From: Candidatus Dadabacteria bacterium
Lineage (GTDB): Bacteria > Bacteroidota > Bacteroidia > Chitinophagales > Chitinophagaceae
DNA length: 64,000 nt
Direction of reading: 5' to 3'
Assembly: GCA_050259715.1 (NCBI GenBank)
Contig: JBLNAY010000203.1
Location: forward strand, 12,798-76,797
A program made the translations under genes and the position numbers. The notes under the pieces were generated by a model. That model was not told the DNA's origin. It did no database searches and was given only the letters and a program-made list of their open reading frames with translations. The stretch's first letter is position 1. The number at the start of each line of letters is the position of its first letter. Shown one piece after another: positions 5,450 to 59,046 of the stretch.

Positions 5450-6370
5450 CTAAAGCTGCCCCCTTTCAGTTGATGTTTTTAAGTTAGAAACCTGGAAAAT
5501 CGATTTTACATAAGCGGTGTTAGCTCCAAAATTCTTCTTTACATTTCGTGGGTCCTTTGCATCTCGTGAACGTTCAATTACGAGCCAACCACTCCAGTGC
5601 ATCTTATCAAGAGTTCTTTTAACACTCTTCATATCTAACCTCGTATTATCCTGGAGCAACACTCCATCATCATCTGTACAATGAATTTGAACTATGTATT
5701 TCTTACCTAATGTCTTTAACTCTTTATTCAAATTGCGTCCATTCTTGAGTGCATTGGAAAAATTGAAATAACTTTTAATGGCCGCACTGCCGACATGCTG
5801 CAGCAACTTTTTTTCATTCTTTGCATCCAACGCAGTCTCTATCCCAATGATAACTCCAGCTTTTTCAGCTAAATGGCCTGCCACTTTTAGACGGCTAATA
5901 ACAGAATCGCATAACTCCGGTCTCTTTACAAGATCACATTGAACACCCAATGGAAGAAAAGCAATTTTCACATTCATCAACTGCATTGTTTTTATGCAAT
6001 CTTCTACCGACTGAATGAATTCAGCTCTTTGACAAAACGATTGAGCATAATAACCGGTCATTGCCAGTGAAGGAATTTCTAAGTTAAGTTGTTTTGCTGT
6101 TGATAAGAATTGCTGCCTAACTGAATCATTAAGTAACTGGTTATCGAATGTTGGCCTGTTTCCTAAGCTACCCATATCAACTTCGACTCCGTCAGCGCCT
6201 ATTTGTTTTGTTAACGGGAATGCACCTAATTTCTGGCGCTTTAGTATCATAATATCTACTACAGCAACTTTGTACTGCTGTTCTTCTATTACCCGATTGT
6301 GTTGCGCAAATGAATTAATTTCCAACAGGGTAATGCAAGCAACGAGGACGAAATCTTTCAATAATCGCAT
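5450..6370 (-). CDS. Secreted xylose-isomerase-like TIM-barrel protein (AP_endonuc_2 / sugar phosphate isomerase-epimerase family)
   Basis: N-terminal signal peptide; GADGVEV, IGIET, QIHCTD and GWLVIER metal-site motifs typical of this fold. Confidence 0.8.
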   Translation of the reverse strand: MRLLKDFVLVACITLLEINSFAQHNRVIEEQQYKVAVVDIMILKRQKLGAFPLTKQIGADGVEVDMGSLGNRPTFDNQLLNDSVRQQFLSTAKQLNLEIPSLAMTGYYAQSFCQRAEFIQSVEDCIKTMQLMNVKIAFLPLGVQCDLVKRPELCDSVISRLKVAGHLAEKAGVIIGIETALDAKNEKKLLQHVGSAAIKSYFNFSNALKNGRNLNKELKTLGKKYIVQIHCTDDDGVLLQDNTRLDMKSVKRTLDKMHWSGWLVIERSRDAKDPRNVKKNFGANTAYVKSIFQVSNLKTSTERGQL

Positions 6371-6381
6371 TACTTACCTTT

Positions 6382-7818
6382 TTAGAATTGAACATTCTTT
6401 TTAAATACATTGGCAATTGTATCAAAACCTTTAAGTGCATTGGAAGGCAGCGATTCGCCCCGACTTCCAAATACTTTCAATGCATCATCTTTCTCAATAG
6501 TTACTCCGGATTCATCAAATTCACCTTTATTATTCATGACTTTTCCTACCGGCAAATGGAATTGCCCTGCAATAAAAGAATACATTGCCTTTCTTTTCGA
6601 AAGACCATAATCATGTCCTTCAGCTGCAAGATGCACATTCTGAACAAGGTCTGGGTCGTTATAAAATCCATATATTCTTTTCAGAAATGGCAATTCATTT
6701 TCTGGTACATGTTGCGTCCAGTCTTTCCCATCAGAAATGACTAACTGCGGTCTTGGTGCTGCCATCGAAGCAATTTCAACATTATTGGTACCGCCGCCAC
6801 ATAAATGAATTCCCATTCCACTTTCACAAGGACACCCACCACTGTGGTACGATGAAAGCATAGCCACAGGCACTGATAAGGTAATCCGGTTATCAATGGC
6901 TGTCATTAGCATAGTCTGGCTTCCTCCACCTGAGGCGCCGGTTATTGCAACACGAGTCGGATCAGCATCTTTAATAGTAAGCAGGTAATCCAAAATTCTT
7001 TCAGTATTTAATACTTGTATACTCTGTACCAAACTACGCCGGTGATCTTTTGGATCCACTTGTAAAACCGACTCCCCCTCCCAACCAAACAGGTCGTAGC
7101 TACATGCAATAGCTCCCATTTTTGCCTCCATTGCGCATCTATATTGACAATCTTCACGAAACCGACCTCTTGAAAAGTGCCCATCAGGATTCAGGATGAC
7201 AGGCAGTTTCCCTGTTGCTTTTAATGGCTTGTAAATCGAGCCACAAGCATATAAACCAGGTAAGGTTTCAATGGCAAAATTTTGAACCGTATAATTGCTA
7301 AACTTTCGAATTGATGTTACAATTGGCTTTGAATTAGGCCTTGCGGGGATAGGAGTTAGTTTTAAAGCAGTTAAAAAACAGCGCCTCAGTGAGTCTCTTC
7401 TTTTTTCCCAACTTATCCTATCTGCATATAGTTTGGAAAGCGCTATCATTTGCTCTTTTCCTTCTTCAACCGTTTTTAAATGATACTGGTATGCCTGCAG
7501 CTTATATTTTTTGTCTCCCTCTTTTGCAAATGTCAGATCCTGTGAAGCAAGGACGTTCATTAATGTAGCATCCAGTGCAGGACGATATCTCCATTTAGCA
7601 TAAGTAACCCATTTGTTATGCACCAGGTCTTCAGAATACCTGATTGTAACACCAAATGTTGCCTGTATATCCTTTATTACTTCTTCTAAAGGGAGGTTAA
7701 ATGCGTCATCAGAGGTTTGGGAAAAGGTGACATTTGAAACTATTATAAAGCAGATCAGCAGCAGATTTCTTACAACGAAATGGATAAATTTGTTTTTATT
7801 AGATAATGGATGGGGCAT
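6382..7818 (-). CDS. Alpha/beta-hydrolase carbohydrate esterase, CE19/BT1017-like pectin (RG-II) methylesterase, with a small N-terminal STN/DUF4974-like domain
   Basis: Signal peptide; nucleophile elbow GASGGG (Ser296); candidate acid in ISDGKDW and His402 in EGHDYG; Cys cluster GGCPC...HLC. Confidence 0.7.
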   Translation of the reverse strand: MPHPLSNKNKFIHFVVRNLLLICFIIVSNVTFSQTSDDAFNLPLEEVIKDIQATFGVTIRYSEDLVHNKWVTYAKWRYRPALDATLMNVLASQDLTFAKEGDKKYKLQAYQYHLKTVEEGKEQMIALSKLYADRISWEKRRDSLRRCFLTALKLTPIPARPNSKPIVTSIRKFSNYTVQNFAIETLPGLYACGSIYKPLKATGKLPVILNPDGHFSRGRFREDCQYRCAMEAKMGAIACSYDLFGWEGESVLQVDPKDHRRSLVQSIQVLNTERILDYLLTIKDADPTRVAITGASGGGSQTMLMTAIDNRITLSVPVAMLSSYHSGGCPCESGMGIHLCGGGTNNVEIASMAAPRPQLVISDGKDWTQHVPENELPFLKRIYGFYNDPDLVQNVHLAAEGHDYGLSKRKAMYSFIAGQFHLPVGKVMNNKGEFDESGVTIEKDDALKVFGSRGESLPSNALKGFDTIANVFKKNVQF

Positions 7819-7877
7819 ATAGCTGATAAAAGAAAAGGAATCTTAATCTAAGCTCAAAATAGAACATTGAAAAACTA

Positions 7878-7896
7878 AACTGTCCTGAACTGTCAT
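7878..7896 (-). promoter_or_regulatory. Candidate regulator-binding or promoter motif, copy 1 (minus strand ATGACAGTTCAGGACAGTT)
   Basis: 18/19 identical to 40306-40324; internal direct repeat ACTGTC at 10-bp period; 60 bp upstream of the esterase start. Confidence 0.5.
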
Positions 7897-8014
7897 TAAT
7901 TAACTAATACAAAGAAAACACTGCTTTCCGGGATAAACACCTTCCAAATACCGCATCTCAAATCCTCTGTAGTTCGCATCTATAGACTTCGTATATGGAT
8001 AAAAAGGAGTAAGA

Positions 8015-8111
8015 ATGAAGTCTGTATTGAGTTTGCAGGGGGTAAAGCCGTTCAAACTCCATACTAACTCCATGCAAACCCCATACTATCTTCATGATAA
8101 CCCTATAGTTC
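8015..8111. repeat. Intergenic 11-bp-periodic hairpin element, copy A
   Basis: Units GTATTGAGTTT|GCAGGGGGTAA|AGCCGTTCAAA|CTCCATACTAA|CTCCATGCAAA|CCCCATACTAT|CTTCATGATAA from 8024. Imperfect inverted repeat 8015-8042 / 8068-8095 (21/28). The 25-bp core 8029-8053 matches 42986-43010 at 24/25. Confidence 0.85.
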
Positions 8112-8226
8112 TTATTGGTTTGAGGAACTTTACTATTCTCTTATATAGACGGACCTGGAGGTCAGAAAATCGAAACATATAGAATTACCCTCGTGAACTG
8201 AACTTCTTTGTCTAAACTTCGAAAAT

Positions 8227-9807
8227 TTAAACGGACGTCGTCTGTTTAGCTAATTTCTTTTCCTTTCTGTGGTTAGCTCTCCATCCTGAATAAAGGAGAT
8301 TTTTATCAATTTCTGGTTTGGGAAAGAATAAACTTGAGAAATAACCAACAACAATCACTACAAGATGGCTGTATACCCCTAACATCAACTTATCATGCTT
8401 GAAGTTATAATACCCAAAATCTAATAAAAGAGTTTTGTGATCACCTATTCCAATTTTAGTTGAGGTGAGGAAGGCATATGAAGTAAACAGGACACAAGCA
8501 ATAATACCGATGTTTATGCCCTGCTTATTTGTTCTAGCACTAAACAGTCCTAAAAGAAATATACCAACTATCCCACCGGAGAAAATTGCATAAAGAGTAA
8601 ATACTATACCCAACACACCTTCACTGCCAGAATAAACATAGAAAATCCCAATAAGAATTGTAAGAATCCCAGAAAAAACAACAATACCTTTGCTAGCGTG
8701 CAGGTAGTGGCTGTCTGTTTTGCCGCTCTTGAACTTCTTGTAATAGTCTTCAACACCTACTGCGGCAAGGCTATTAAGATCTGCACTCAGGCTACAGATA
8801 GCTGCTGAAATCATGGCTGAAATAATTAAACCAACTACCCCAAAAGGAAGCCTTGTTTTAATAAAGTACGGAAATACCGCTTCGGCTTTAAGTCCTGTTG
8901 GTAATGGCTGTTGCTTGTAAAAAGCAAAAAGAGCAGTTCCTATGAACATAAATATCATCCAAACAGGTACTGTCAACAGTATACCCATTAATGAGGCTCT
9001 TATCGCACCCTTGTCTGTTTTTGCAGTTAAATATCGCTGTACAACTGTCTGGTCAGTTCCATATTTCTGAATGGCATAAAAAGCTCCGTTAATAGCCATT
9101 ACGATAAATGTAAGCCTGGTGAAATCAACAGTATAAGGACCAAAACCCGTTCTGCCATTTTCGGCTGCTATATGAAAAACTTCAGATGGTCCGCCATGAG
9201 TTGAAAAAAGTAATACTGACAAGCATATTATACCACTGGCAAATAGCATAAATCCCTGGAAAACGTCTAACCAAATAACAGCCTCTATACCCCCCAAGAG
9301 ATTGACAGTGATAATTATTAGTCCAACAATACATACGATAGCTATCATGTTGCCTCCCATAATATTTCCAAGAGCAATTGCAAGCAGGAAAAGAACAGTG
9401 CCCATGCCGGAGAACTGTCTCAATACAAAAGCTACAGAACTATAGTACCTGGCGAACGATCCAAATCGCTGTTCGAAATATTCGTATGTACTTAACCGAA
9501 TAACCTTTCTATATAGAGGAACAATAAACCAGATAACAGTTATTAAAACTATCGGAACCATAAGGCCCTGCACCAATAAAATCCAGTTTGACGAGTACCC
9601 GGTGCCGGGATATGCAAGAAAAGTTACACTGCTAATTAATGTTGACAACAAAGACATTCCTATAGCCCATGCCGGAATCCTTCCATGGGCGAGGAAATAA
9701 GACTTGGTTGAAATCTGGTTTTTCTTAAACCGAAAGCCAAAGTATAAGGTAGCTAGAAGAAAGAAAACAATTATAACATAATCGATGATATGCAGAGATG
9801 AATTCAT
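8227..9807 (-). CDS. Sodium:solute symporter (SSS, SiaT/NIS-like subgroup); candidate Dha or threonate importer
   Basis: Multi-TM protein; SSVTFLAYPG, LLGGIEAVIWLD and DQTVVQRYLT motifs. Last gene of the tightly packed ADH-aldolase-pdxA-kinase run. Confidence 0.88.
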   Translation of the reverse strand: MNSSLHIIDYVIIVFFLLATLYFGFRFKKNQISTKSYFLAHGRIPAWAIGMSLLSTLISSVTFLAYPGTGYSSNWILLVQGLMVPIVLITVIWFIVPLYRKVIRLSTYEYFEQRFGSFARYYSSVAFVLRQFSGMGTVLFLLAIALGNIMGGNMIAIVCIVGLIIITVNLLGGIEAVIWLDVFQGFMLFASGIICLSVLLFSTHGGPSEVFHIAAENGRTGFGPYTVDFTRLTFIVMAINGAFYAIQKYGTDQTVVQRYLTAKTDKGAIRASLMGILLTVPVWMIFMFIGTALFAFYKQQPLPTGLKAEAVFPYFIKTRLPFGVVGLIISAMISAAICSLSADLNSLAAVGVEDYYKKFKSGKTDSHYLHASKGIVVFSGILTILIGIFYVYSGSEGVLGIVFTLYAIFSGGIVGIFLLGLFSARTNKQGINIGIIACVLFTSYAFLTSTKIGIGDHKTLLLDFGYYNFKHDKLMLGVYSHLVVIVVGYFSSLFFPKPEIDKNLLYSGWRANHRKEKKLAKQTTSV

Positions 9808-9826
9808 ATAGCACTGATTAAAAAAA

Positions 9827-10963
9827 TTAATTAAAATTCCATTCAGCAGGCCACTGATAACTACCAGGTTTAATTGTTAGAAACAAATTGGGTAAATCTT
9901 TAACGGCCATCCGAACCACACCCTGGCTTAGTTCATGTGTAGGATAAAATGTACTTAACTCGCTTCTTTTAATGATAGAATAAGCTGTAGAGCCACCTTC
10001 AACCAGCAATTCCGTAACCTGATGCTCATTCAAAATGATATTGACTACTTCACTTATCTTATCAGCCAGCATCTTAGGATTGGTTGCATCATGTCCATGG
10101 TTACCAACAGCAATTATTGCCTTTCCCGATGTACTTAAAATAGATAACACATGGTGAGCCCAATTCAATAATTCAGCCTTTTCGATTTGTTGTGACTGGA
10201 AGATATTTTCAGGCATATAAGAAACATAGCGATTGTAATTTTTTATCCTCGAGACATTCAGATTGTAAGTAGTACCACTCACTAGCAGTATAGGGAGTGA
10301 ATAGTTCACTTCCTTACTTTCATCTGATTGGTTAAAGCCTAACGATTTTAAAAGAGCATCAAAAAAGGAAGCGCCTCCTGCCAGGAGTACCTCTGAATCC
10401 ATGAACTTAGTCCAATTTAAAACATCGCCCATAGTTTCCGCATCACCTACTGAGATGCCCGAGGGTAAATGACTTGTCTTTTCCTTAATGATGGACACGG
10501 GAACACCTTCATCACCCAGCATGTCTCTCACGAAAGAAGATTTGATTGGAAACTCCGGATCGTTAGAAAAGCCTGCCTGGTCAACCGGGGTATTCTGGAT
10601 AAAATACCTGCCATTCTTTATGGTCCTTCCTAATAAAGGATTTACTGGAATCAATAATCCCCTGTTTGCTTTCAGTGCCTCCATTTGAGCTTTCATTTCA
10701 GCAAGTACGTGCCCTCGTAAAACTGAATCTGTCTTCTTATAAATTAATTGCGGTTTTTGCGACAGAGCTTTTTCAGTTAATTCACTCATGACAGAAACGG
10801 CTTCATTCTTTTCTAACGATCTTGTATTTGTATACACAACAACGAGATCAGCATCTGGATATATACCAAGGTCAGATACTATAGCAATTTTTAAATTATA
10901 CCTCAGGCCAATTCCTGCTAGTTCGGCAGCTCCTGTGATATCATCAGCTATAACAACAATCAT
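9827..10963 (-). CDS. Four-carbon acid sugar kinase (DUF1537/YgbK family; D-threonate kinase-like)
   Basis: IADDITGA, YKKTDSVLRGH, LVEGGSTA and TIKPGS motifs. ATGA overlap with pdxA at 10960-10963. Confidence 0.9.
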   Translation of the reverse strand: MIVVIADDITGAAELAGIGLRYNLKIAIVSDLGIYPDADLVVVYTNTRSLEKNEAVSVMSELTEKALSQKPQLIYKKTDSVLRGHVLAEMKAQMEALKANRGLLIPVNPLLGRTIKNGRYFIQNTPVDQAGFSNDPEFPIKSSFVRDMLGDEGVPVSIIKEKTSHLPSGISVGDAETMGDVLNWTKFMDSEVLLAGGASFFDALLKSLGFNQSDESKEVNYSLPILLVSGTTYNLNVSRIKNYNRYVSYMPENIFQSQQIEKAELLNWAHHVLSILSTSGKAIIAVGNHGHDATNPKMLADKISEVVNIILNEHQVTELLVEGGSTAYSIIKRSELSTFYPTHELSQGVVRMAVKDLPNLFLTIKPGSYQWPAEWNFN

Positions 10964-11997
10964 GATTTCTTCCTGTTTTTACTCAACTGCACTGCAGATT
11001 CTATTGCCAGCAGCATAGCATCGGGACTTGCAATACCTTTTCCTGCTATTTCGAATGCCGTCCCATGATCTACAGAAGTTCTTATAATAGGAAGACCCAT
11101 TGTAATGTTAACTCCTTTGACACTATCCATTTGTTTTTTTTCAGCATTCCATTTAAAACCCGATAACTTAAACGGGATATGCCCCTGGTCGTGATACATT
11201 GAAACAACACCACCATAAGCACCTGTCGCAGCTTTTGCAAATAATGTATCGGAGGGAACAGGACCCTCAACATCATATCCAGCTTTCCTGGCTTCTAAAA
11301 CTGCTGGGCCGATTTCAAGTTCTTCTTCGGTGCCAAATAAACCATTATCACCCGCATGTGGATTCAAACCAGCAACACCTATTTTTAAATTCTTCTCTCC
11401 AAGTTGTTGCAAGCCGTTTCTTAATAAGCTTATAACTTCCAGGATCCGGTCTTTCTTAACGAGATCACAAGCCTGGCGTAAGGAAACATGGGTTGAAACA
11501 TGAATCACTTTCATGTTCTCTTCAACCAACAACATTGCATATTTCTTTGTACCTGTGTAATGGGCGTATATTTCTGTATGGCCTGCAAAATGATGACCTG
11601 CTTCGTTAATCGATTTTTTATTTATTGGCCCCGTAACGGTGGCATCAACTTCCCCGGCTAAGGCCAACTCAATCACCTTTCTGACAGCTTCAAAAGAAGC
11701 ATTACCAGCCATGGCAGAAATCTGTCCAAGCTTTAACTGCCCGACTGATACATTATTAAGATCTAAAACATCAATCACACCAAATGTAAACCGCGCTTGA
11801 TTGACTTCATTAATGGGATTAAACAAAACATTTAAGCCTAATAGATCTGAAATGTGCTTAAACACTTTTATATCACCGACTATCAAGGGTCGGCAGATTG
11901 AATAGACTCTTTTGTTTAATAGCGCTTTGATAGCAATTTCAGGACCAATGCTAGCCGGATCACCCATTGTGACGGCTATAATAGGAAGTTGATTCAT
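10960..11997 (-). CDS. pdxA2: PdxA-family dehydrogenase, PdxA2 type (D-threonate/erythronate 4-phosphate dehydrogenase)
   Basis: TMGDPASIGPE, GHTE, HVSTHVSL, LNPHAGD, MYHDQGHIP and RTSVDHGTAF motifs. Coupled to a DUF1537 kinase, which is the established pdxA2 context. Confidence 0.88.
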   Translation of the reverse strand: MNQLPIIAVTMGDPASIGPEIAIKALLNKRVYSICRPLIVGDIKVFKHISDLLGLNVLFNPINEVNQARFTFGVIDVLDLNNVSVGQLKLGQISAMAGNASFEAVRKVIELALAGEVDATVTGPINKKSINEAGHHFAGHTEIYAHYTGTKKYAMLLVEENMKVIHVSTHVSLRQACDLVKKDRILEVISLLRNGLQQLGEKNLKIGVAGLNPHAGDNGLFGTEEELEIGPAVLEARKAGYDVEGPVPSDTLFAKAATGAYGGVVSMYHDQGHIPFKLSGFKWNAEKKQMDSVKGVNITMGLPIIRTSVDHGTAFEIAGKGIASPDAMLLAIESAVQLSKNRKKS

Positions 11998-12006
11998 CTT
12001 TTACAT

Positions 12007-12918
12007 TCAAACTTTTAATATGTTCTGCTTCTTGAAACTTTCATAGTCAGCTATGAGCTTCAATTCATCTGCCTGGGATAATGGCTGGAGAGGAGGCATT
12101 ACAAAATGTTCACATAATCCTTCATGATGCATTAATAGTTTTAATGCCCATAATGATTCTCCCAGTAATCTTCCCTTTTGATATATTTCCCCAAGTTTGT
12201 CAGATTGTTGCTGGTAAATAAATGCAAGGTCTTTGTCTGACTTTTCAACTGCGTCCACCATTTGTCGGTAGATTCCAGGAGAAAGGTTACCTGTACTTGG
12301 AATTAGTCCGTCACTTCCATTAATCAAAGCGTACGCAGACCGGGCTGCCCAACCGAGATAATGCACAAAATCATCCCTTTTCTTCCATAAGTGCATTGAA
12401 GTATTTAATCGTTCATCACTTCTCTCTGAATCCTTTGTTCCGATGATATTTGGGTGATAACTCAATTGCTCAATTATTTCCAAAGGAATGGACATATGCG
12501 TCGTTCCTGGTATGTTATAAATTATCAAAGGTCCCGGAAGATAATCAGCAAGTTGTTCAAAGTAGTTTCTAATTTCTTTGTTTGATAATGAATAATAGGA
12601 AGGCAAATGTGCTGCAACTACATCGACTCCATTATCAAAACAATATTTACCGAAGTCAATAGAATCTTCAAGGCAATTCGAAGCTATCCCTGCATATAGA
12701 AAAATTCCAGGATTCCTGTGTCGGACTGCTGTCTTAACGTATTGTTTTTTCATGTGCAAAGGAACAGACGCTGCCTCACCCGTGGTTCCTAATATAAACG
12801 GCATTACACGGTGACCTAAGAAACTCTCGAATATCTTTTCTAATGCACCTTCATCAAGTTTAAAATCGGAAGTTAAAGGTGTAATTGCAGGAACAATTAT
12901 CTGTTTATCTTTTTTCAT
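12007..12918 (-). CDS. DHDPS/NAL-family class I aldolase (aldolase 1)
   Basis: GTTGE, IIYNIP and Schiff-base GTKDS motifs. ATG at 12918 overlaps the Fe-ADH stop (TGATG); the ORF track starts one codon earlier on TTG. Confidence 0.88.
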   Translation of the reverse strand: MKKDKQIIVPAITPLTSDFKLDEGALEKIFESFLGHRVMPFILGTTGEAASVPLHMKKQYVKTAVRHRNPGIFLYAGIASNCLEDSIDFGKYCFDNGVDVVAAHLPSYYSLSNKEIRNYFEQLADYLPGPLIIYNIPGTTHMSIPLEIIEQLSYHPNIIGTKDSERSDERLNTSMHLWKKRDDFVHYLGWAARSAYALINGSDGLIPSTGNLSPGIYRQMVDAVEKSDKDLAFIYQQQSDKLGEIYQKGRLLGESLWALKLLMHHEGLCEHFVMPPLQPLSQADELKLIADYESFKKQNILKV

Positions 12919-14069
12919 CAATAAGCTGCATTATATATTTCGATCGCATCTGCCTCAGTGATAAGCCGCGGATTGTTCTTCAGAAGTCTTTGAATTTTCA
13001 GAGCATTAGCTGCCATCCCGGGAATTACTTCCTTAGGTATATTCACTTCTCTTAATCGGGATGGAATACCGCACTGTGAAATTACAAGCCTGATTTTCTC
13101 TATACCTTTTTTTGCCGTAATGACATCATCTGCATGTTTTTCACATCCCAGTGCTACAGCTACATCTGCATACTTTGCAGGTGAAGCAGGCAAATTATAC
13201 TCTATTACATAAGGCAACAATAAAGCATTTGAAAGTCCATGTGCAAGATGGAACATGCTTCCTAATGGATAGGATAAAGCATGTACAGCAGCAGTATTCA
13301 CAGGACCTAGACAAAACCCTCCCAGAAGACTCCCCATTGCAACATTTGACCGAGCTTCTTTATTAGACCCATTTTTAACTGCTTCAACAAGACTGCCTGC
13401 GATAAGTTGAATTCCTCTCAATGCATACATATCAATAAGCGGATGAGCAAATTTATTGGTATAAGCTTCAAGACAATGAGTCAATGCATCTAATCCTGTT
13501 GCCGCTGTAATTGCAGGTGGTACTGACAACGTTAAAAGAGGATCTACTATTACAAGATCAGGAACAAGGTATTGACTAATAATTCCTTTCTTCTGATTGT
13601 CCTCATCAAGTAAGATTGCATTAGGTGAAACCTCACTACCGGTTCCTGCCGTTGCAGGTAAACAGATCAACTTCTTTTTCCTTTGTTTTAATAACCCTAT
13701 ACCGACATATTCATACAGTGTCTGATCATTGTCCAACTGTGCGGCAATTAATTTCGCCACATCTAACACACTTCCACCACCTACTCCAATTACCACATCA
13801 GGATTGAATTCCTCAACTTCTTCATACAAAGTTTTAAAATCAGCAAATGTTGGTTCGTTTATTATTGTTGTGTTAATAAGAACATCTATTCGTCTTGATG
13901 AAATCTCTTTAATAATATCCTGCAACTGAAGAACAAGGGGTGAGATTGTTATTATTAAAACTTTTTTTGCAAATGTATTCGCGACTTCTTCTGCCAATTG
14001 AGCTAAACTCCCATTTCCAAAAACCAGCTTTCCTGGAAAATTGATATTTATCTGTTCGGGTATATCCAT
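12918..14069 (-). CDS. Iron-containing alcohol dehydrogenase / aldehyde reductase
   Basis: GGGSVLD, TAGTGSE, DALTHCLEAY, HALSYP and HGLSNA (Asp/His3 metal ligands). Confidence 0.92.
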   Translation of the reverse strand: MDIPEQININFPGKLVFGNGSLAQLAEEVANTFAKKVLIITISPLVLQLQDIIKEISSRRIDVLINTTIINEPTFADFKTLYEEVEEFNPDVVIGVGGGSVLDVAKLIAAQLDNDQTLYEYVGIGLLKQRKKKLICLPATAGTGSEVSPNAILLDEDNQKKGIISQYLVPDLVIVDPLLTLSVPPAITAATGLDALTHCLEAYTNKFAHPLIDMYALRGIQLIAGSLVEAVKNGSNKEARSNVAMGSLLGGFCLGPVNTAAVHALSYPLGSMFHLAHGLSNALLLPYVIEYNLPASPAKYADVAVALGCEKHADDVITAKKGIEKIRLVISQCGIPSRLREVNIPKEVIPGMAANALKIQRLLKNNPRLITEADAIEIYNAAY

Positions 14070-14177
14070 ATCGTTTGTAATTTTCTTTCCTCCTTTTACC
14101 AGAGGAATAATTATATTTTACTAATATTCTGAGCCGTCTGTATATCTCACAAATGTGATTACTCCGTTATGGCTATT

Positions 14178-15158
14178 TTAAATGGGAGGATCTAAAGGTA
14201 CCTTTGGCAACATTATTTCCTGCACATCAACAGGTTCGATCTGCAGTCTATCACACCAGATTATAAAAGTCGTATGAATATCATCTAAAGTCTTTTTTTG
14301 CTCAGGGGTAAGCTCCAGGGCATGCGCACGACTAATCGTTCTAACTGGCAATCCTCTTTTTCGCAAAAAGTATTTAGCACTCATTGGATATGCAATATGG
14401 ATTAAAGGATCTACACGTGTAAGCTCGGATTGTAACCATTCAACCTCTTTTGCTTTTTCCGGATTACTTGCATTATTACACATCCATACTAAAACTTCAG
14501 GATAGAAATTTCCGGATATTGACGACATTCCTTTTGCACCCATACGTAATGAGTACATTGCATTAGGAGTGTGAGCATCATAAAACTCCAACTTAGTACT
14601 TTCTCTCGCTATCTCAATTTTAGCTTTAACGTACTCCAGCCTAATAGAAGTATCCTTGTGATATACAAATCTTTGCGTATCCAGTAAGTATTTGAATACA
14701 TCGGCAGACAGTATTCTTTTATATGGGGCAGGGCACTCATACATCCCGAGTGGAATATTTTCGGTCAACCTTAGCATCTTTTCGAAATTTCGTAACAGTA
14801 CATTATCATTATCATCCACATTCGCATAATGGCCTGTAATCAGGATGGCAGCGTCAATACCTGTTTGGTAAATCCTTTTTGTAAATTCCGCTTTGTCCTC
14901 AATAGTTAATCCGAAAGATCCTGTTGCGACCACCGGCACTCGCCCATTGACGTACTTTACAATATGTTCAGTTAATTCCAATCTCTCATCTTCTGTAATA
15001 CTATACATCTCACTGCTTAAACAGTTTGCAAAAAATCCTTTTACTCCAGCAGCCAAGTAAAAGTCAATTAACCTTGAGACTACGTCGAGATCTACTTTGG
15101 CCTTAAGGTTAAAAGGTGTAATCATCACTGGCACAAACTTCTTATCAGTAGTCAACAT
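14178..15158 (-). CDS. DHDPS/NAL-family aldolase (aldolase 2, CLSSE variant)
   Basis: PVMITPF start; FANCLSSEM in place of GTTGE; GMYECP; Schiff-base-position HKDTS. Confidence 0.82.
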   Translation of the reverse strand: MLTTDKKFVPVMITPFNLKAKVDLDVVSRLIDFYLAAGVKGFFANCLSSEMYSITEDERLELTEHIVKYVNGRVPVVATGSFGLTIEDKAEFTKRIYQTGIDAAILITGHYANVDDNDNVLLRNFEKMLRLTENIPLGMYECPAPYKRILSADVFKYLLDTQRFVYHKDTSIRLEYVKAKIEIARESTKLEFYDAHTPNAMYSLRMGAKGMSSISGNFYPEVLVWMCNNASNPEKAKEVEWLQSELTRVDPLIHIAYPMSAKYFLRKRGLPVRTISRAHALELTPEQKKTLDDIHTTFIIWCDRLQIEPVDVQEIMLPKVPLDPPI

Positions 15159-15325
15159 ATTACTTGTATTTAATTGTTCTTCCGGTCAGGAAGTTATAAT
15201 TATAATTTGTTACAGCTTTCCTGTGCTTTATGGTTGTTCTACAAAGTTCACCAGGGTACAAATATTATCAATTGTAATACTGATTACACCATTGCTTTGG
15301 ATTAAACCTTTATTTTTAAACCTCA

Positions 15326-16961: not shown

Positions 16962-18101
16962 TTAATCTGACGTTACTTCACCTTTATTAGGGGGAGAATA
17001 TCCTTTCAGCTGTGGCCATTCACCATTGAGTATTTCTTTTAACTCCAGTTTCGAAGGATCAATTTGTACATACTTGATTCTTTCTCTTCTCCATGTATAA
17101 ACAATATGAACCATACCATCTGATGATTGTATAACTGAAGGATAGGAATACTGGCTTATAGGTGAATCTTCCAGTATCAGGGCAGCATACCATTTCTTAC
17201 CATCTTTACTTACGGAAACATTTAATGGAGTACGTGGTCCCTTCCCATTCGGTAAACTATCAGCAGGTAAAACATGATTATATACAAGAAGTTGTCTTCC
17301 ATCTTTTAGACTGACAGCATCTAATCCAGAATTATTGTTCGGCATACACGTTTTGGTTGGTTCCGACCAACTTTCTCCATTATCAGTAGACCATGACTCT
17401 ACTATTGATCTTTGTTTACTCCGGCTAAGTATTTGAAGTTTTTCACCAGGATATACTAAAATGGTTGGTTGTATGATGTTCAACTTTTTTACATCGTTAA
17501 TAGGTCCGACCTTTCGCCATGTTTTCCCCTGGTCATCGGAAATCTCAACGTAAACTCTCCAACCTGGACTACCCTCGACACTTGAGGGAGCTATAAGTCG
17601 GCCACTTTGTAATCTGATTGGTTTGTTTTTAGAAGGTCCAAGAAAACCTTGCTGCAGAGGAATTTTTTCTGACCAGGTAATTCCATGGTCTTTCGAAACT
17701 TTCATAAATCCTTTCCAGTCAGCTACATTCTTACCTATTTTATAAAACAACAATAAATCGCCTCCTGGAACCTGGTACAATACAGGATTGTAACATGGTT
17801 TTCGAACACTATCATTCAAAATACCATTTGCTACAGAAACAGGCTCTGTCCATTTATTATTAACGTTCCTGCTAACCCAAATTTCTACATCCGGATTACC
17901 TTCTTTGGTACCTCCAAACCATGCTGTGATAAGTCCTTTAGGAGTTTCTGCGATTGTTGCGCAATGACTTTGTGGAAAGGGAGCTTTATCAAAAATAAAT
18001 TCGTCAACAACAATGCCTTTCTTCCATACAGAATTTTGCTGTGCTTTACCATTTACGGCTGTGAAGAAGAAAAGTGTAATAGCAAATAATAAAGATTTCA
18101 T
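16962..18101 (-). CDS. BNR/Asp-box sialidase-fold glycosidase (GH33-like; candidate Kdo hydrolase, cf. the BT1013 C-terminal module)
   Basis: Signal peptide; Asp-boxes SKDHGITW, SDDQGKTW, STDNGESW and SKDGKKW; YSYPS motif. Confidence 0.78.
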   Translation of the reverse strand: MKSLLFAITLFFFTAVNGKAQQNSVWKKGIVVDEFIFDKAPFPQSHCATIAETPKGLITAWFGGTKEGNPDVEIWVSRNVNNKWTEPVSVANGILNDSVRKPCYNPVLYQVPGGDLLLFYKIGKNVADWKGFMKVSKDHGITWSEKIPLQQGFLGPSKNKPIRLQSGRLIAPSSVEGSPGWRVYVEISDDQGKTWRKVGPINDVKKLNIIQPTILVYPGEKLQILSRSKQRSIVESWSTDNGESWSEPTKTCMPNNNSGLDAVSLKDGRQLLVYNHVLPADSLPNGKGPRTPLNVSVSKDGKKWYAALILEDSPISQYSYPSVIQSSDGMVHIVYTWRRERIKYVQIDPSKLELKEILNGEWPQLKGYSPPNKGEVTSD

Positions 18102-24419: not shown

Positions 24420-26270
24420 CTATTCCCGGGGAGTTAACGTTTTAAACGATGTGATGTAATAAACAGCTTTCTTATCCTGTTCTCCTCCGTTTGGAAGATC
24501 GTACATCTGGTCTGTTGGAGTATCCGCATCAGGAAAACGGCGCATAGGGCCAGTTCTGAAGACTACACGATCAATGCTGGAGAGAGGAGCAAAAAATAAT
24601 CCCTGTGAATTCTTTCCATTAATTGAAACTGTATAGAACCTGGTATCTGTATTTAATTCTACCCGGAAATTGTACTGTTCACCAGCTTTGAACTTCACCA
24701 GGCTTTTATTCTTGTAGCCTGCTTTTGTAATTATACTTCCGGCTGAATCAAACGAAAGTCTAACGCCAGCTGTACCCTTACAATCAGTAAACTCAATATC
24801 CATCCAACCATTATTATCTTGCTCTGGAATGACTGTAAATTCTGTTATTAGCCTTTTAGAAGATGGTATTATTCTTTCTGCCCTGGCGTAATCAAAAGGA
24901 TCCCAATCATGGAGAGTTAGTGCTTTTGTACCTGTACCAGTTTTTTCAATTGTCACAGGGGTCCACAAGCCACTATTATAATTCCAATAAGTTAGTTCTT
25001 TGCCATTCTGCATTTCATTGAATACTTCATTTATATCTGAAGTTACCTTATCTGTAATTGGCACAGGTATGGTTGCTACCCAAATATCTTCTTTGTTCAT
25101 GCTATAGGTCACCCACACATTTCCATCCGGCGGTCTACCATTTCCTTCAATTATTCCACGGATATATTGAGGTCCATAGGATTTATAGGCACCTCCATAT
25201 CTCATTGAGGTAATCTCTCCATTAACTAATAGAAGATTGGTAAAGTTTAACCCATCCTTGCTTACTGATAGAGCTAATGGCCATCTAAATTCAGAAGGAT
25301 TATATACAGTTGCATATTTTCCATCTGAAGTTTTCTGCCCCCACATTTTAGCATTCCCATTTACGACATGTGGCGCTCTTAAAGGATTATATACCCAAGT
25401 TTTTCCTTCATCTAAACTGATAGATGTTAACCCGTTTTTCCAGAAGCCCACAACCCTGCCATCAGGTAAATGATACCAGCAAAAGGCTTTTAAATCTTTC
25501 TTCAATGGAATAATAGGATCATCCCGATCGGCTTCTTCAACCCACTGTTGTACCTGTAGTGGGTTATTTAATATCTCGTTACATGCTTTTACAAAACCTT
25601 TGTCTTTACTTGAAGAATAGATTGGAAAAGCAGAATTAGTTTGATTCCATTTTTTATTATACCTCAGAAAATATATTGGTCCATAACTCCCATCCTTATA
25701 TATTTCACGAACAGCGCGACCCATACCAAGCCCATCGTTAGGATCATCACCAGCGCCTAAAACGATTCCATAATACGCAAGAGTTAATAACCTGTTTTTC
25801 TTTGAAACATAAAAACCCATTCTCTGGTGATTGACAGAATATACATCTTTAGCCACTTCCATTCTTCCTTCCTTAGTTGTCCCATCAGGAATTTTAACCG
25901 GGGGAAAGATAATCACAGGTTTACTCCAATGATAACCATCTTTTGATGTTACAAGAAAAGTTTGACCAGGAGGAATATGTTCCCCAACAGGATCACTAAG
26001 AAAATGAAGATAAAACTGGTTATTCCAATATGCTATCATTGGAGCATGATTGTATGTCCAATTTGTGCCACCGGCAAGTTCAGGATGTTCCCTATTCGCG
26101 CGGAATACTTGTATATTATGAACACCTACTGCTGGTGCGAGTTGGCCATGATGATAATCCACATTTACCAGGGTGCTACCTGTATAATGAACAGTGTCTT
26201 GCCCCAGCACAGAAATCCATATAATAAAAAACAGAAAGCTTAATAATCCTTTCATTCTAATTATAAACAC
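24420..26270 (-). CDS. GH143-like beta-propeller (candidate 3-deoxy-D-lyxo-heptulosarate [Dha] hydrolase, BT1020 N-terminal module)
   Basis: VDYHHGQL.PAVGVHNIQVFRANREHP, TYNHAPMIAYW and VNHQRMGFY motifs plus Asp-boxes, matching my recall of the BT1020 N-module. The true start is probably the ATG at 26255. Confidence 0.72.
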   Translation of the reverse strand: MFIIRMKGLLSFLFFIIWISVLGQDTVHYTGSTLVNVDYHHGQLAPAVGVHNIQVFRANREHPELAGGTNWTYNHAPMIAYWNNQFYLHFLSDPVGEHIPPGQTFLVTSKDGYHWSKPVIIFPPVKIPDGTTKEGRMEVAKDVYSVNHQRMGFYVSKKNRLLTLAYYGIVLGAGDDPNDGLGMGRAVREIYKDGSYGPIYFLRYNKKWNQTNSAFPIYSSSKDKGFVKACNEILNNPLQVQQWVEEADRDDPIIPLKKDLKAFCWYHLPDGRVVGFWKNGLTSISLDEGKTWVYNPLRAPHVVNGNAKMWGQKTSDGKYATVYNPSEFRWPLALSVSKDGLNFTNLLLVNGEITSMRYGGAYKSYGPQYIRGIIEGNGRPPDGNVWVTYSMNKEDIWVATIPVPITDKVTSDINEVFNEMQNGKELTYWNYNSGLWTPVTIEKTGTGTKALTLHDWDPFDYARAERIIPSSKRLITEFTVIPEQDNNGWMDIEFTDCKGTAGVRLSFDSAGSIITKAGYKNKSLVKFKAGEQYNFRVELNTDTRFYTVSINGKNSQGLFFAPLSSIDRVVFRTGPMRRFPDADTPTDQMYDLPNGGEQDKKAVYYITSFKTLTPRE

Positions 26271-55907: not shown

Positions 55908-57494
55908 TTATTCAAACGTGATATTCTCGAAAACAGATGTATCTTTTACCAGGGGTTTAACGACATTAGTAAAATTGTTATTCTTTATTAAAATATTTTT
56001 TGTTTTATCTCCTTTCACATTCAGGAATACCTCTGTCCCTTTCACTGGGTTAGAGTTATACAGGAAAACATCCTGTACATTCTGAAGATCAATAACAGGT
56101 CTACCGTCAACCGGCTTCATAGTTTTGAATCCATCAATAGTCAGCCCTGTTACATTTTCTCCCATTAATGAAGGCCCACTCCTTGTTGTTATTCGCACAT
56201 TATGAAATTCGATGTTCTTAGCTTCTTTAATAGTTGCGCCTTGCTCTGCATCAAATTGGATATCATTGAAAGTAACATCTTCAACCGGCATTTCTGCAAG
56301 GCCGTTAATATATATTGCTTCTTTAGTTTGAGCAGTAATATTACTTAAGTGAATGTTACGGAATACAGGTGTTCGTTCAGAAAAAGGTTCAGGTTGATTG
56401 CGGGAATATTGCATATCCAATACAACAGCTTGTTGACCGATATTTTTCATAATTACATTATTAATCCTTACTTCTTCAACTACGCCACCTCTTCCCCTGG
56501 TCGTTTTAATACGTATACCACGATCAGTACCATCAAAAACGCAATTGGAAATTGTAATCTTCTTTACGCCTCCACTCATCTCACTGCCGATAACAACACC
56601 ACCATGACCAGCCAACATAGTGCAGTTGGTGATAGTATAATTTTCTGCGGGTGCTGCTTTTGTTCTTCCGGGAACATCTTTGCCCGATTTAATAGTTATA
56701 CAATCATCCCCTACACTTATATGGCAATTGCTAATGTGAACATATTTACAACTTTCAGGGTTAATCCCATCCGTGTTTGGAGAATGAGGGTTATTAATGG
56801 TTACTCCATCAACAGTTACATTTTCACAGAACTCGGGGTTAATTGTCCAGAAAGGTGAATTAGTAATGTAAATTCCTTCAACACGAACATTTTTACAATA
56901 CATAGGTTGAATAAATGGAGGCCGGAGGAAACCTCTTTTCATTTGGGCGGCATCATCAGGAAGCAATATGTTTTTATTCAGGCTATCAAACAAGTATTGG
57001 GATTTTGTTCGGGCCTGACCGGGTTTATAGTTTAGAACAAAGTCCCACCATTTCTTTCCATGACCGTCTATTTTACCCCTTCCACTTATAGTTATATTCT
57101 CGGCCTTATAAGCATAGAATAATGGAGAAAAGCTCTTAACATCGACACCTTCATACCGTGTCTCTACAAAGGGCAAGTAATCATCAAAATTATCAGAGAA
57201 ATGTAATTCAGCTCCTGCATCAATCAGAATAGTGATGTTGCTCTTTAAGTGTATTGGTCCGGTAAGATATTTACCTGCAGGGAAATATACCGTTCCACCC
57301 CCTTTCTTTGCAGCAGCATCAATAGCCGCCGCTATCGCTTTAGTGCATAATTTACTACTATCGTTTTTTGCCCCATAACTGATGACATTATAATAAATCT
57401 GCGCATTTGCAGTAGTAAATAGTCCGATTGATATAAACAAGAAGGAGAAAATTGTAAACTTCCGCATTGTATTATTGTAACTTAATAAGTACAT
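55908..57494 (-). CDS. GH28 alpha-D-galacturonidase/polygalacturonase
   Basis: NTDG, GDDCITIKSG, GHGGVVIGSE and RIKT catalytic motifs. The start is probably at 57467 (MRKF). Confidence 0.94.
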   Translation of the reverse strand: MYLLSYNNTMRKFTIFSFLFISIGLFTTANAQIYYNVISYGAKNDSSKLCTKAIAAAIDAAAKKGGGTVYFPAGKYLTGPIHLKSNITILIDAGAELHFSDNFDDYLPFVETRYEGVDVKSFSPLFYAYKAENITISGRGKIDGHGKKWWDFVLNYKPGQARTKSQYLFDSLNKNILLPDDAAQMKRGFLRPPFIQPMYCKNVRVEGIYITNSPFWTINPEFCENVTVDGVTINNPHSPNTDGINPESCKYVHISNCHISVGDDCITIKSGKDVPGRTKAAPAENYTITNCTMLAGHGGVVIGSEMSGGVKKITISNCVFDGTDRGIRIKTTRGRGGVVEEVRINNVIMKNIGQQAVVLDMQYSRNQPEPFSERTPVFRNIHLSNITAQTKEAIYINGLAEMPVEDVTFNDIQFDAEQGATIKEAKNIEFHNVRITTRSGPSLMGENVTGLTIDGFKTMKPVDGRPVIDLQNVQDVFLYNSNPVKGTEVFLNVKGDKTKNILIKNNNFTNVVKPLVKDTSVFENITFE

Positions 57495-59046
57495 GTTTTA
57501 ATTCTTTTCCATTATATATTTTTCGTTCATTCTCATAAACTGTCAAGCCTGCTTCTCTGCCATAATGAGTACCGTTTTTATCCCATATAATGGAAATGGT
57601 TTTACCATGATATGGAAGTTTATCCAGGAAAAACCAGCTCCATTTATTTTTCGGAATTAGCGGAAATATTTCAAGTACATTATCTTCTCTTGGTTTTAAT
57701 CCAATAAGATCATTAATTACAAGGTCAGCAAAACAGGAATGATTATAATAACTGCTTCTTGGATTATCACCTTTTAACCATTCTCCTGTTTTCTCATCCT
57801 GGTATTCACCTAAATACGGTCGGCCTCTTTTTTGGTGAGACCAGGCATATTTATGCAGTTCATCATAGAAAACACTTGAATTCATAAGTGAATGATAAGG
57901 GTACCTCGTGAGAAGATTAGAAAGTCCTTTCAATGTTTGTGTGGTGGCAAACGGCCATACAGCGCCATCCCATTCACATCCATGTCCTGAGCCATGAGTT
58001 CTGAATAATGGATGCCTTCTTTCAGCTGTTGTTATTCCCCAGGGTGCCTTGAAACCGTTTGTATCAAGTAATTGATCCCATTGTACGGCATATTTCCTAT
58101 CTGAAGTGGGAAGATTAAAATACCAGGGAATATAGCCAAGTTCTTCGCGTGCATCATCCAGTTGCCCATTTGTATGGAGCACTTTATAAAAATTCTTTTT
58201 ATAATCCCACAGGCTGTCATTTACCAATTTCTGAAGTTTCGAAGCTTTATAACTATATTTTAGTTTCAAACTGTCGATTGAAAGTACTTCAGCCATTTTG
58301 GTCATCGCCCATGCGTTGCCAAACATATAACTGTTAATAGTTGGCCTCCTGTTTTGCTCTTTGCGGCTACCACTGATAGATTCTTCCATAGCATCCCTAA
58401 CGTCATATTGCCAGAATAAACCGGAGGAAACTTGCTTTTCGTTTTCCCAAGTTGTATAATCCTGGTCCAGGGCTGAGATATTTTTCCTTAGAAATTCTTT
58501 GTCTTTATTTACCAGGTAGCGATTGTAGATTGCATATTGTAACCAACTACTAAATGCATGCAGGTGAGGTTTTGGAGTCTTTGGATCTACATACAACCAA
58601 AAGTTGATATAATTATTAAGGTACTTTTGATTCCGCAACCATCTAAGTTCGCTTATGTGGTGACCCAAAGCACTACTCACTGTATTATATTTTCCTGCAT
58701 GACCAACAGGTGTGATGAATTCTGTAAAAACGAATCCATCAGGTGTTTGCTTCAGATGTTTCCTTATTGCCCACCACCTGTAATAATATATATTTTCAAT
58801 AATGCTGTCAGGGCATTCAAAGAGAGGGATGTTTTCTGATAACCATTCATAAGCCTGGCTATTAGTAACAAAATTCTTTACTGTTTCAGAATCAATTGAA
58901 TTAAAGTAGGCAACATATTTCTTTAGTTTGGCTGTGGCTAATCCTACAGACTTTTCCTGCGCGATACCCTGCGACATGAACAATATGATAGCAGCCACAG
59001 TAGCAAATATCTTTCCAGGCAAAAAATAGTTTCTCATATTATTCAA
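57472..59046 (-). CDS. GH142-like (alpha/alpha)6 glycosidase (candidate beta-L-arabinofuranosidase, BT1020 C-terminal module)
   Basis: NIPLFECPD, YYYRWW, DAMEESIS, REELGYIPW, WDGAVWP and YNHSCFADLVI motifs. Confidence 0.7.
   Translation of the reverse strand: MNNMRNYFLPGKIFATVAAIILFMSQGIAQEKSVGLATAKLKKYVAYFNSIDSETVKNFVTNSQAYEWLSENIPLFECPDSIIENIYYYRWWAIRKHLKQTPDGFVFTEFITPVGHAGKYNTVSSALGHHISELRWLRNQKYLNNYINFWLYVDPKTPKPHLHAFSSWLQYAIYNRYLVNKDKEFLRKNISALDQDYTTWENEKQVSSGLFWQYDVRDAMEESISGSRKEQNRRPTINSYMFGNAWAMTKMAEVLSIDSLKLKYSYKASKLQKLVNDSLWDYKKNFYKVLHTNGQLDDAREELGYIPWYFNLPTSDRKYAVQWDQLLDTNGFKAPWGITTAERRHPLFRTHGSGHGCEWDGAVWPFATTQTLKGLSNLLTRYPYHSLMNSSVFYDELHKYAWSHQKRGRPYLGEYQDEKTGEWLKGDNPRSSYYNHSCFADLVINDLIGLKPREDNVLEIFPLIPKNKWSWFFLDKLPYHGKTISIIWDKNGTHYGREAGLTVYENERKIYNGKELKHVLIKLQ

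Follow-up and report, generated by a model that had tools for sequence, protein, structure and literature searches.

The subject of this analysis is a compact cassette of five genes within a 64-kb stretch of DNA, referred to here as the window, which corresponds to positions 12798-76797 of contig C203 in source genome G000 (G000:C203:12798-76797). Open reading frame (ORF) listing and profile searches resolve the whole window as a single array of minus-strand genes, of the type found in polysaccharide utilization loci (PULs) for the plant glycan rhamnogalacturonan II (RG-II). It includes SusC/D genes, GH141, three GH78/GH2 pairs, a GH140 apiosidase, DUF6298, GH95, GH28 and GH143. An initial annotation of this DNA had read the five genes as a catabolic pathway for the RG-II sugar Dha (3-deoxy-D-lyxo-hept-2-ulosaric acid), and the results presented here support that interpretation as far as sequence analysis reaches. 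The genes of the cassette are as follows.

12918..14069, minus strand: FEADH, an iron-containing (group III) alcohol dehydrogenase of 383 aa (Pfam Fe-ADH and ADH_Fe_C)
12007..12921, minus strand: ALD1, a class I pyruvate-dependent aldolase of the DHDPS/NAL family, 303-304 aa (Pfam DHDPS)
10960..11997, minus strand: PDXA, a PdxA2-like NAD-dependent oxidative decarboxylase of 345 aa (Pfam PdxA)
9827..10963, minus strand: KIN, a short, divergent DUF1537 acid-sugar kinase of 378 aa (Pfam SBD_N and fold match)
8227..9807, minus strand: SSS1, a sodium:solute symporter of the SiaT branch, 526 aa (TIGR00813)

Enzymes and transporter of the cassette

The positions and families of these five genes agree with the initial annotation, each family being confirmed by Pfam and NCBIfam. 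The tight packing that it described, with translationally coupled junctions, can be read directly from the DNA: a TGATG junction joins the FEADH stop codon to the ALD1 ATG, PDXA and KIN overlap at ATGA, and gaps of 9 bp and 19 bp separate ALD1 from PDXA and KIN from SSS1, respectively. For ALD1, the ORF listing gives a TTG start at 12921; the ATG one codon further on, at 12918, is likelier. The four enzymes lack signal peptides, which are present on the hydrolases of the locus. A scan for sigma-70 promoters and terminators gave no enrichment over shuffled sequence (32 versus 34 expected, and 5 versus 7.1, respectively) and is uninformative on operon limits in this phylum.

ALD1 matches the Pfam DHDPS model (PF00701, 132 bits) and retains its catalytic motifs intact. 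Residues G45-T-T-G-E49, K163-D-S-E166 (containing the Schiff-base lysine), Y109, Y135 and N136 are conserved in at least 95% of 58 orthologues, and Y109 is also nearly invariant in a 28-sequence set. The arginine that is specific to DapA after YNxP is absent, the sequence reading YNIPGTTH. Scores fall below the curated equivalog cut-offs for dapA (119 versus 206) and NanA (107.5 versus 281), and the best match in the Protein Data Bank (PDB) is a generic DapA with only 108 bits; ALD1 thus lies near nothing characterized.

FEADH carries both domains expected of its family (Fe-ADH, PF00465, 138 bits; ADH_Fe_C, PF25137, 174 bits), and its GGGS motif for NAD and Asp/His metal ligands are kept across 52 orthologues. 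No NCBIfam equivalog cut-off is reached: ErcA scores highest (265 bits), followed by lactaldehyde reductase (253 versus a cut-off of 523), and 4-hydroxybutyrate dehydrogenase scores 223. The protein lies at much the same distance from DhaT, methanol dehydrogenase, FucO and 4-hydroxybutyrate dehydrogenase, the last of which acts on the unhydroxylated analogue of the substrate proposed for FEADH below.

In KIN, the N-terminal SBD_N domain is clear (PF07005, 113.9 bits versus a cut-off of 25), and the C-terminal NBD_C domain scores 20.9 bits, below the Pfam cut-off of 28.3. Across 33 sequences there is no variation at M1-D8 and G11 (the ADDxTG region) or at G323-G324. An AlphaFold2 model (mean confidence, pLDDT, 92.9) aligns over about 415 columns, spanning both domains, with all five solved DUF1537 proteins (TM-score 0.77-0.80, E about 1e-21), the top structural match being Salmonella STM0162. 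With respect to other DUF1537 models, KIN scores 62.6 bits for OtnK and has no match to OiaK.

PDXA (Pfam PF04166, 343.6 bits) is nearer to the structures of PdxA2/D-threonate-4-phosphate dehydrogenases (268-292 bits; 2hi1 280, 6e85 268) than to E. coli PdxA (183 bits, 36% identity). It is 46% identical to 6e85 and has the HDQGHIP signature in common with PdxA2. In a phylogenetic tree, true PdxA proteins split off with 99/98 support, and PDXA falls in the PdxA2 superclade, in a clade of its own. A second PdxA-family gene, at G000:C15:21963-22826, scores 359 bits and clusters with E. coli PdxA, sharing 33% identity with the cassette copy; the presence of this separate housekeeping gene argues that PDXA is not the vitamin B6 enzyme.

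SSS1 exceeds the TIGR00813 cut-off (204.7 versus 184 bits), and its best PDB match is the sialic-acid transporter SiaT of Proteus mirabilis (5nv9, 239.5 bits; the next match scores 154). For both SSS1 and the second transporter of the window, SSS2, SiaT is by far the best structural relative. SSS1 has a glycine aligned with the carboxylate-binding Arg135 of SiaT, and a nearby arginine is not conserved; the residue aligned with Arg135 is kept in SSS2.

Conservation of the cassette and its association with GH143

A kinase-anchored scan, limited to one genome per species, yielded 80 loci, onto which all proteins of the window were mapped. The complete set FEADH-ALD1-PDXA-KIN-SSS1 is present in 48 of the 80, and 59 have at least the aldolase and the kinase; among these 59, FEADH is found in 52 and SSS1 in 55. 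Such recurrence of the same five genes in other genomes puts the arrangement far beyond chance. One gene order is common to Chitinophagaceae, Sphingobacteriaceae, Cyclobacteriaceae, Saprospiraceae, Planctomycetota, Chlorobiota and Balneolota. In Prevotellaceae, the order is rearranged with the content kept (ALD1-SSS1-(FEADH)-PDXA-KIN), and such shuffling of a constant gene set is good evidence for one function. A group of kinase-anchored loci of lower identity has only PDXA (38-43%) and KIN (29-35%), and was used as a pair-only control.

The aldolase was also followed independently in metagenome contigs. A single-sequence ALD1 query returned no matches in these contigs; an alignment-based query succeeded, yielding 80 loci with a clear gap in identity. 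Where enough flanking sequence was available, 16 of 18 loci with ALD1-type aldolases (at least 37% identity) carry PDXA and/or KIN, compared with none of 17 loci whose aldolases are at most 33% identical; the latter are NanA-like and lie in sialidase-SSS loci typical of sialic acid use. This indicates that ALD1 belongs to a distinct subfamily tied to the kinase/dehydrogenase pair. A search with ALD1 against plasmids led to an unrelated rhizobial peptide-transporter locus. In the exceptional loci L045, L048, L098, L102, L123 and L131, the neighbouring genes show no alternative fate for the aldehyde.

In one of these, the metagenome contig L098, the genes directly upstream of the ALD1-type aldolase (5084-6895) encode a URO-D-like protein and the two halves, N-terminal and pyrimidine/C-terminal, of a split transketolase. 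The split is reminiscent of how apulose-4-phosphate transketolase is arranged in the non-oxidative route for apiose. URO-D-like genes also occur downstream of the cassette in L045.

Three further genes of the window encode hydrolases that bear on the cassette.

24420..26270, minus strand: GH143-type sialidase-fold hydrolase with a signal peptide, 616 aa (PF24067)
57472..59046, minus strand: MGH1-like (alpha/alpha)6 glycosidase with a signal peptide, probably of GH142 type (PF22422, 258 bits)
16962..18101, minus strand: BNR33, a secreted sialidase-fold (BNR_2) hydrolase (BNR_2, 299 bits; signal peptide)

GH143 enzymes release Dha from side chain D of RG-II. The description of the locus as an RG-II PUL with a GH143 enzyme stands, the 24420-26270 protein matching the N-terminal propeller of BT_1020 (PF24067) with 406.5 bits over 235 of 236 profile positions. 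It represents the GH143 part alone, and the separate MGH1-like protein probably supplies the GH142 part, which would trim arabinose from Dha in chain D. The commonest neighbours in the 59 loci with ALD1 and KIN are RG-II genes: GH142-like (21 loci), GH78 (17), BNR33 (15), GH143 (13) and GH140 (8).

With PF24067 as the marker for GH143 in whole genomes, the co-occurrence that the initial annotation had suggested as a check was found, GH143 being present in 35 of 36 genomes with the cassette and in none of 12 pair-only controls (Fisher P=2e-10, no phylogenetic correction). A second comparison used 401 genomes drawn evenly from the phylum of the window, the cassette being defined as adjacent kinase and aldolase genes. 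GH143 occurs in 17 of the 401 genomes and the cassette in five; four of these five have GH143, compared with 13 of the other 396 (Fisher P=1e-5, rising to 2e-4 on exclusion of the window's own genome, neither with phylogenetic correction). The link holds separately in Bacteroidota and in eight genomes of Planctomycetota.

The cassette also occurs in a sulfatase-rich context that is not of the RG-II type, at five loci (L021, L024, L034, L061 and L085; approximately 400-18600 in each). Its carriers here are aquatic-type Bacteroidota, comprising metagenome-assembled genomes (MAGs) of Cytophagia, Saprospiraceae and unclassified Bacteroidota, together with genome G239 from the sample of the phylum. 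Around the cassette lie genes for a TonB-dependent receptor, an FGE-sulfatase/BNR_2 fusion, one or two sulfatases, a GntP permease, a bicupin and a Laminin_G_3 protein. These loci, with the exception of G239, also encode a propeller of GH143-like type (37-40% identical), and in four MAG loci its gene follows the cassette, either directly or behind the GntP permease gene. What is common to the RG-II and non-RG-II contexts is a sialidase-fold or GH143-type hydrolase, and not RG-II itself. Prasinophytes build their scales, and Tetraselmis its thecae, from 5-O-methyl-Kdo and Dha (PMC10762512). It is plausible, if speculative, that the target in the sulfatase-rich loci is a sulfated or algal ulosonic-acid glycan, such as that of green-algal scales or thecae.

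Predicted catabolism of Dha and competing explanations

The proposed pathway would begin in the periplasm, where GH143, and possibly BNR33, would release Dha from RG-II for uptake by SSS1, the putative inner-membrane Dha importer. ALD1 is proposed to be a Dha aldolase, which through its lysine Schiff base would cleave the C3-C4 bond to give pyruvate and OHC-CHOH-CHOH-COOH (D-threuronate). FEADH, the candidate D-threuronate reductase, would use NAD(P)H to reduce the aldehyde group, giving D-threonate (renumbered from the carboxylate), and KIN, as a putative D-threonate 4-kinase, would form 4-phospho-D-threonate. PDXA is proposed to be a 4-phospho-D-threonate dehydrogenase, and would oxidize C3 with loss of C1 to yield dihydroxyacetone phosphate (DHAP) and CO2. 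The net conversion would be Dha + ATP to pyruvate + DHAP + CO2, and would be redox-neutral, the NADH used by FEADH being returned by PDXA.

The stereochemical closure claimed in the initial annotation was reproduced in our own derivation: in Fischer projection, the C4 left, C5 left and C6 right hydroxyls of Dha lead to D-threuronate and hence to D-threonate. Since Kdo and Dha are alone among RG-II sugars in being native 2-keto-3-deoxy acids, no dehydratase is needed. Every element of the Dha interpretation that could be tested computationally held. We estimate a probability of about 0.6 that the cassette converts Dha to pyruvate, DHAP and CO2 by the proposed order of steps; the substrate, each reaction and this order are what we infer from the genes. 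The initial annotation knew of no characterized Dha catabolic route, and none was found in the open-access literature, although absence there is not proof.

A number of observations weigh against this interpretation. None of these enzyme families is known to act on Dha. In the phylum sample, 13 of the 17 genomes with GH143 have no cassette; B. thetaiotaomicron, likewise, has GH143 and PdxA and no DUF1537. This suggests that many RG-II degraders do not use Dha, or use another route. Conversely, two genomes with the cassette lack GH143 (G239 and that of L053). As GH143 marks RG-II degraders generally, its co-occurrence alone cannot separate Dha from Kdo or other RG-II sugars. FEADH is absent from seven of the 59 loci with ALD1 and KIN.

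Further points of the same kind concern the kinase and the dehydrogenase. The identity of KIN to solved DUF1537 kinases is only 16-20%. Its best NCBIfam match, to the model for D-threonate kinase (NF047819), reaches 105.7 bits versus a cut-off of 450 and covers residues 2-245 only. PDXA scores 323.3 bits against an equivalog cut-off of 583 (NF002891), its identity to the characterized enzyme being the 46% given above, and has an insertion of 11 aa, (W/F)(N/D)xxxxx(M/W)xSV, at about residues 281-291, between HDQGHIP and GVNIT. The insertion is present in every cassette-type PDXA across phyla, including that of a Firmicute record, and is absent from the pair-only copies, the housekeeping copy and all solved structures. 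Given the low identity of KIN and the separate, insertion-bearing clade of PDXA, specificity for D-threonate is a prediction. In addition, locus L048, from a Bacteroidia MAG whose genome lacks GH143, has a PDXA/KIN pair with no aldolase, alcohol dehydrogenase or SSS gene within 10 kb.

The L048 pair (8012-10154), in which PDXA has the insertion, lies between an AAA/DUF4143 gene and that for isoleucyl-tRNA synthetase; it may be an orphaned remnant, or may reflect a different use of the pair. In L055 (8981-9838), from a MAG of the Sedimentisphaerales, the PDXA frame turns into unrelated sequence in the region of the insertion, suggesting a frameshift, an assembly error or a pseudogene.

The aldolase and transporter might instead serve Kdo or another ulosonic acid, with the kinase and PdxA2-like enzyme serving an unrelated C4 acid or an RG-II acid sugar such as aceric acid, the two parts being merely co-regulated within one operon. 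Because Kdo and Dha do not differ in configuration at C4-C6, Kdo is a possible substrate of ALD1, and the co-occurrence with GH143 ties the cassette only to RG-II as a whole. The window also contains a second aldolase and transporter with no assigned role. In L074 (Prevotellaceae), an FGGY kinase gene and a fucose-isomerase-like gene lie directly upstream of ALD1 (3534-6453) in a locus with no FEADH gene, which again counts against Dha. Six Mucilaginibacter-type loci have an FGGY kinase gene after SSS1, and the window itself has an arabinose/fucose-isomerase-like gene and an FGGY kinase gene (43107-44537; 63263-64000). These FGGY kinase and isomerase-like genes are plausible candidates for a route from D-arabinose, the product expected from cleavage of Kdo.

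However, that neutral D-arabinose needs none of the Fe-ADH, DUF1537 and PdxA2 enzymes, and only the fragment from Dha keeps a carboxylate for beta-decarboxylation of the PdxA type. The five genes occur together across phyla and outside RG-II loci, and ALD1-type aldolases are almost never found without PDXA or KIN, which argues for one pathway. Aceric acid was rejected as a substrate, because no 2-oxo acid for a pyruvate-type aldolase can arise from its quaternary carboxyl carbon and because the cassette also occurs outside RG-II loci; we know of aceric acid only from RG-II. A division of the cassette between Kdo and a second acid is thus considered unlikely.

A different order of steps, with Dha still as the substrate and the same net reaction, is a little less probable again. 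PDXA would first oxidatively decarboxylate Dha (C5-OH oxidized, C7 lost) to 2,5-diketo-3-deoxyhexonate; KIN would then phosphorylate the new C6 hydroxyl beside the ketone, as OtnK does with 3-oxo-tetronate, and ALD1 would release pyruvate and hydroxypyruvaldehyde phosphate, the latter being reduced to DHAP by FEADH. In our own derivation, mass and redox balance close equally well. The distinct PDXA clade with its insertion, and the strong divergence of KIN with its atypical C-terminal domain, would be compatible with such non-canonical substrates. On the other hand, characterized PdxA and PdxA2 enzymes use phosphorylated C4 substrates, and hydroxypyruvaldehyde phosphate would be a reactive intermediate. 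Moreover, Pantoea has the same set of enzymes with an insertion-free PdxA2 that is 75% identical to D-threonate-4-phosphate dehydrogenase. The occurrence of this set with a near-canonical enzyme suggests that the insertion is a lineage marker, and favours the order through D-threonate.

A non-phosphorylative deoxy-sugar route appears very improbable. ALD1 would in that case be a 2-keto-3-deoxy-L-fuconate or -L-rhamnonate aldolase and FEADH a FucO-like lactaldehyde reductase, with KIN and PDXA forming a separate tetronate module. Rhamnose and fucose are abundant in RG-II, several GH78 genes and a GH95 gene occur in the locus, and lactaldehyde reductase is second only to ErcA among the NCBIfam matches of FEADH. 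This match is nevertheless far below the FucO cut-off, FEADH being about as close to three other dehydrogenases; no set of sugar dehydrogenase, lactonase and dehydratase genes lies beside the cassette in the window; and the strict linkage of ALD1 to PDXA and KIN would be left unexplained.

It is hardly credible that KIN and PDXA salvage 4-hydroxythreonine as 4-phosphohydroxythreonine towards pyridoxal 5'-phosphate (PLP), their position in the PUL being incidental: DUF1537/PdxA2 pairs such as Salmonella STM0162/PdxA2 can do this (Thiaville 2016, as cited in PMC10971088 and PMC9997740), and a paper on E. coli GR6 reads its own pair as B6-related (PMC12928451), but the source genome has the separate, higher-scoring PdxA on contig C15, the pair is joined to an aldolase, an alcohol dehydrogenase and a transporter and linked genome-wide to GH143, and B. 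thetaiotaomicron has PdxA without a DUF1537 protein.

Related systems and neighbouring genes

The closest parallel to the second half of the proposed Dha pathway is the catabolism of D-threonate in Salmonella and its relatives by DtnK, a DUF1537 kinase, and PdxA2, a decarboxylating D-threonate-4-phosphate dehydrogenase (Zhang et al. 2016, PNAS 113:E4161, as cited in PMC10971088). In both systems, genes of the same two families are adjacent and overlapping, PDXA has the HDQGHIP signature, KIN has the two-domain DUF1537 fold, and the predicted products are DHAP and CO2. They differ in that KIN (16-20%) and PDXA (46%, with the 11-aa insertion) belong to distinct subfamilies, and in that the cassette adds a front end of transporter, aldolase and reductase, and would make D-threonate inside the cell instead of importing it.

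This front end resembles the nan system for sialic acid, with a periplasmic sialidase-fold hydrolase, a SiaT-like SSS importer and a class I aldolase of the DHDPS/NAL family that frees pyruvate from a 3-deoxy-2-ulosonic acid. ALD1, however, is about 30% identical to NanA-type aldolases and separate from them in gene context. Its predicted aldehyde product is the acid D-threuronate and not N-acetylmannosamine, so the downstream enzymes are wholly different.

In its logic, the pathway would parallel that for D-glucarate and galactarate in E. coli, which comprises the GarL aldolase, the GarR tartronate-semialdehyde reductase and the GarK glycerate kinase. There too, pyruvate is split off a keto-deoxy diacid, the aldehyde acid is reduced and the resulting hydroxy acid is phosphorylated, Dha being the C7 homologue of 5-keto-4-deoxyglucarate. 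All enzyme families differ (the aldolase GarL is of the class II HpcH type, GarR is a beta-hydroxyacid dehydrogenase and GarK is a glycerate kinase), and the fragment predicted for the cassette is one carbon longer, so an additional oxidative decarboxylation would be needed to reach triose phosphate.

Comparable gene sets exist in Proteobacteria. The GR6 island of extraintestinal pathogenic E. coli (ExPEC) encodes a CitT-like carrier, a NanQ-like protein, a COG4692 sialidase-fold protein, a DapA-like aldolase, an Fe-ADH, a DUF1537 protein 40% identical to DtnK and a PdxA2 75% identical to the Salmonella enzyme (PMC12928451). The authors assign no substrate and lean to a role related to PLP (PMC12928451). 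A related cluster exists in Sinorhizobium meliloti, and we confirmed a comparable set on pSymB of this species. On plasmid pPANA10 of Pantoea ananatis, genes for a short-chain dehydrogenase/reductase (SDR), YhcH, an exo-alpha-sialidase, an SSS transporter, a DHDPS-family aldolase and an Fe-ADH face a gene for PdxA2, which is annotated as D-threonate-4-phosphate dehydrogenase, is 75% identical to 6e85 and lacks the insertion. A Subdoligranulum record has a comparable set, with a PDXA that is 55% identical to that of the window and has the insertion.

The clusters of GR6, pSymB and pPANA10 are thus like the cassette in combining a sialidase-fold protein, a transporter, a DHDPS-family aldolase, an Fe-ADH, a DUF1537 protein and PdxA2. 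The literature gives no substrate for any of them. Their members are distant (aldolase about 25%, Fe-ADH 34-40%, kinase 23%, PdxA 43%). As the aldolases of pPANA10, pSymB and the Subdoligranulum record are about 25% identical to both ALD1 and the second aldolase of the window, ALD2, the sets in these records are considered analogous and not orthologous to the cassette. The clusters of GR6, pSymB and pPANA10 also differ in their insertion-free PdxA2, in a hydrolase of the BNR33/COG4692 type in place of GH143, in the presence of a YhcH/NanQ-like anomerase and in the type of transporter, which may be SSS, ABC or CitT-like.

RG-II is regarded as the most complex plant glycan, and its depolymerization has been mapped enzyme by enzyme, unlike the intracellular fate of its rare acid sugars. 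According to a 2026 RG-II preprint, the routes by which other gut microbes handle Kdo and further released products are still unconfirmed. The chances are about even that the cassette represents the first Dha catabolic pathway together with the missing physiological source of D-threonate for DtnK/PdxA2, a sialic-acid-style front being joined to a tetronate-style back, in divergent versions in at least six phyla, with re-use in sulfatase-rich loci of aquatic Bacteroidota, possibly on the Dha/Kdo-rich scales and thecae of green microalgae. At the same even odds, it would span soil Bacteroidota, Planctomycetota, rumen Prevotellaceae, Pantoea, rhizobia and ExPEC E. coli.

If so, Dha would gain a complete route to central metabolism, assembled from known kinds of enzyme for a substrate with no described route, and functions would be provided for four uncharacterized enzyme subfamilies and one transporter. 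It would explain the presence of D-threonate enzymes in so many plant-associated bacteria, and would suggest how bacteria recycle Dha-rich algal cell coverings. As a genomic marker, the cassette would also distinguish between RG-II degraders that burn Dha and those unable to use the route, such as B. thetaiotaomicron with its lack of DUF1537, which bears on cross-feeding in soil, rumen and gut.

Next to the cassette, at 14178-18101 of the window, BNR33, the SiaT-like SSS2 and ALD2 form a triad in the style of sialic acid loci. ALD2 belongs to a distinct DHDPS subfamily with NCLSSE and YECP motifs, and the triad possibly serves Kdo. BNR33 may instead belong with the Dha cassette, as it lies directly upstream of it in 15 of the 59 loci with ALD1 and KIN, including some without ALD2 and SSS2, and as relatives (31% identity) accompany the aldolase/Fe-ADH/PdxA2 sets of Pantoea and the Subdoligranulum record. 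To judge from this gene context, BNR33 is a possible second enzyme releasing an ulosonic acid (Dha or Kdo) and tied to the cassette.

Besides KIN, the source genome encodes just one other DUF1537 protein. Its gene lies 6 kb to the left of the window, in an oxidative D-apiose module at G000:C203 3683-8361, and specifies an OiaK-like protein (470 aa, 420 bits) beside an OiaX-like RuBisCO-like protein (488 bits); both scores are below the curated cut-off of 700, and the two proteins may be variants. The module also contains genes for an Asp/Glu-racemase-like protein and an SBF-family transporter, and is flanked by PL4-like, DUF6250, GH78 and GH2 genes. Apiose is thus served separately and KIN is a different enzyme; a role for KIN as 3-oxo-isoapionate kinase was ruled out by this second gene and by the lack of a match to the OiaK model. 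PDXA was also considered as an ApnO-type enzyme, and this was rejected, the paper on the structure of ApnO nowhere mentioning PdxA. Elsewhere in the window, the GH141 protein (2935-5445) has a C-terminal L-rhamnose mutarotase (rhaM) domain (38 bits), a fusion that is unusual for a secreted glycosidase.

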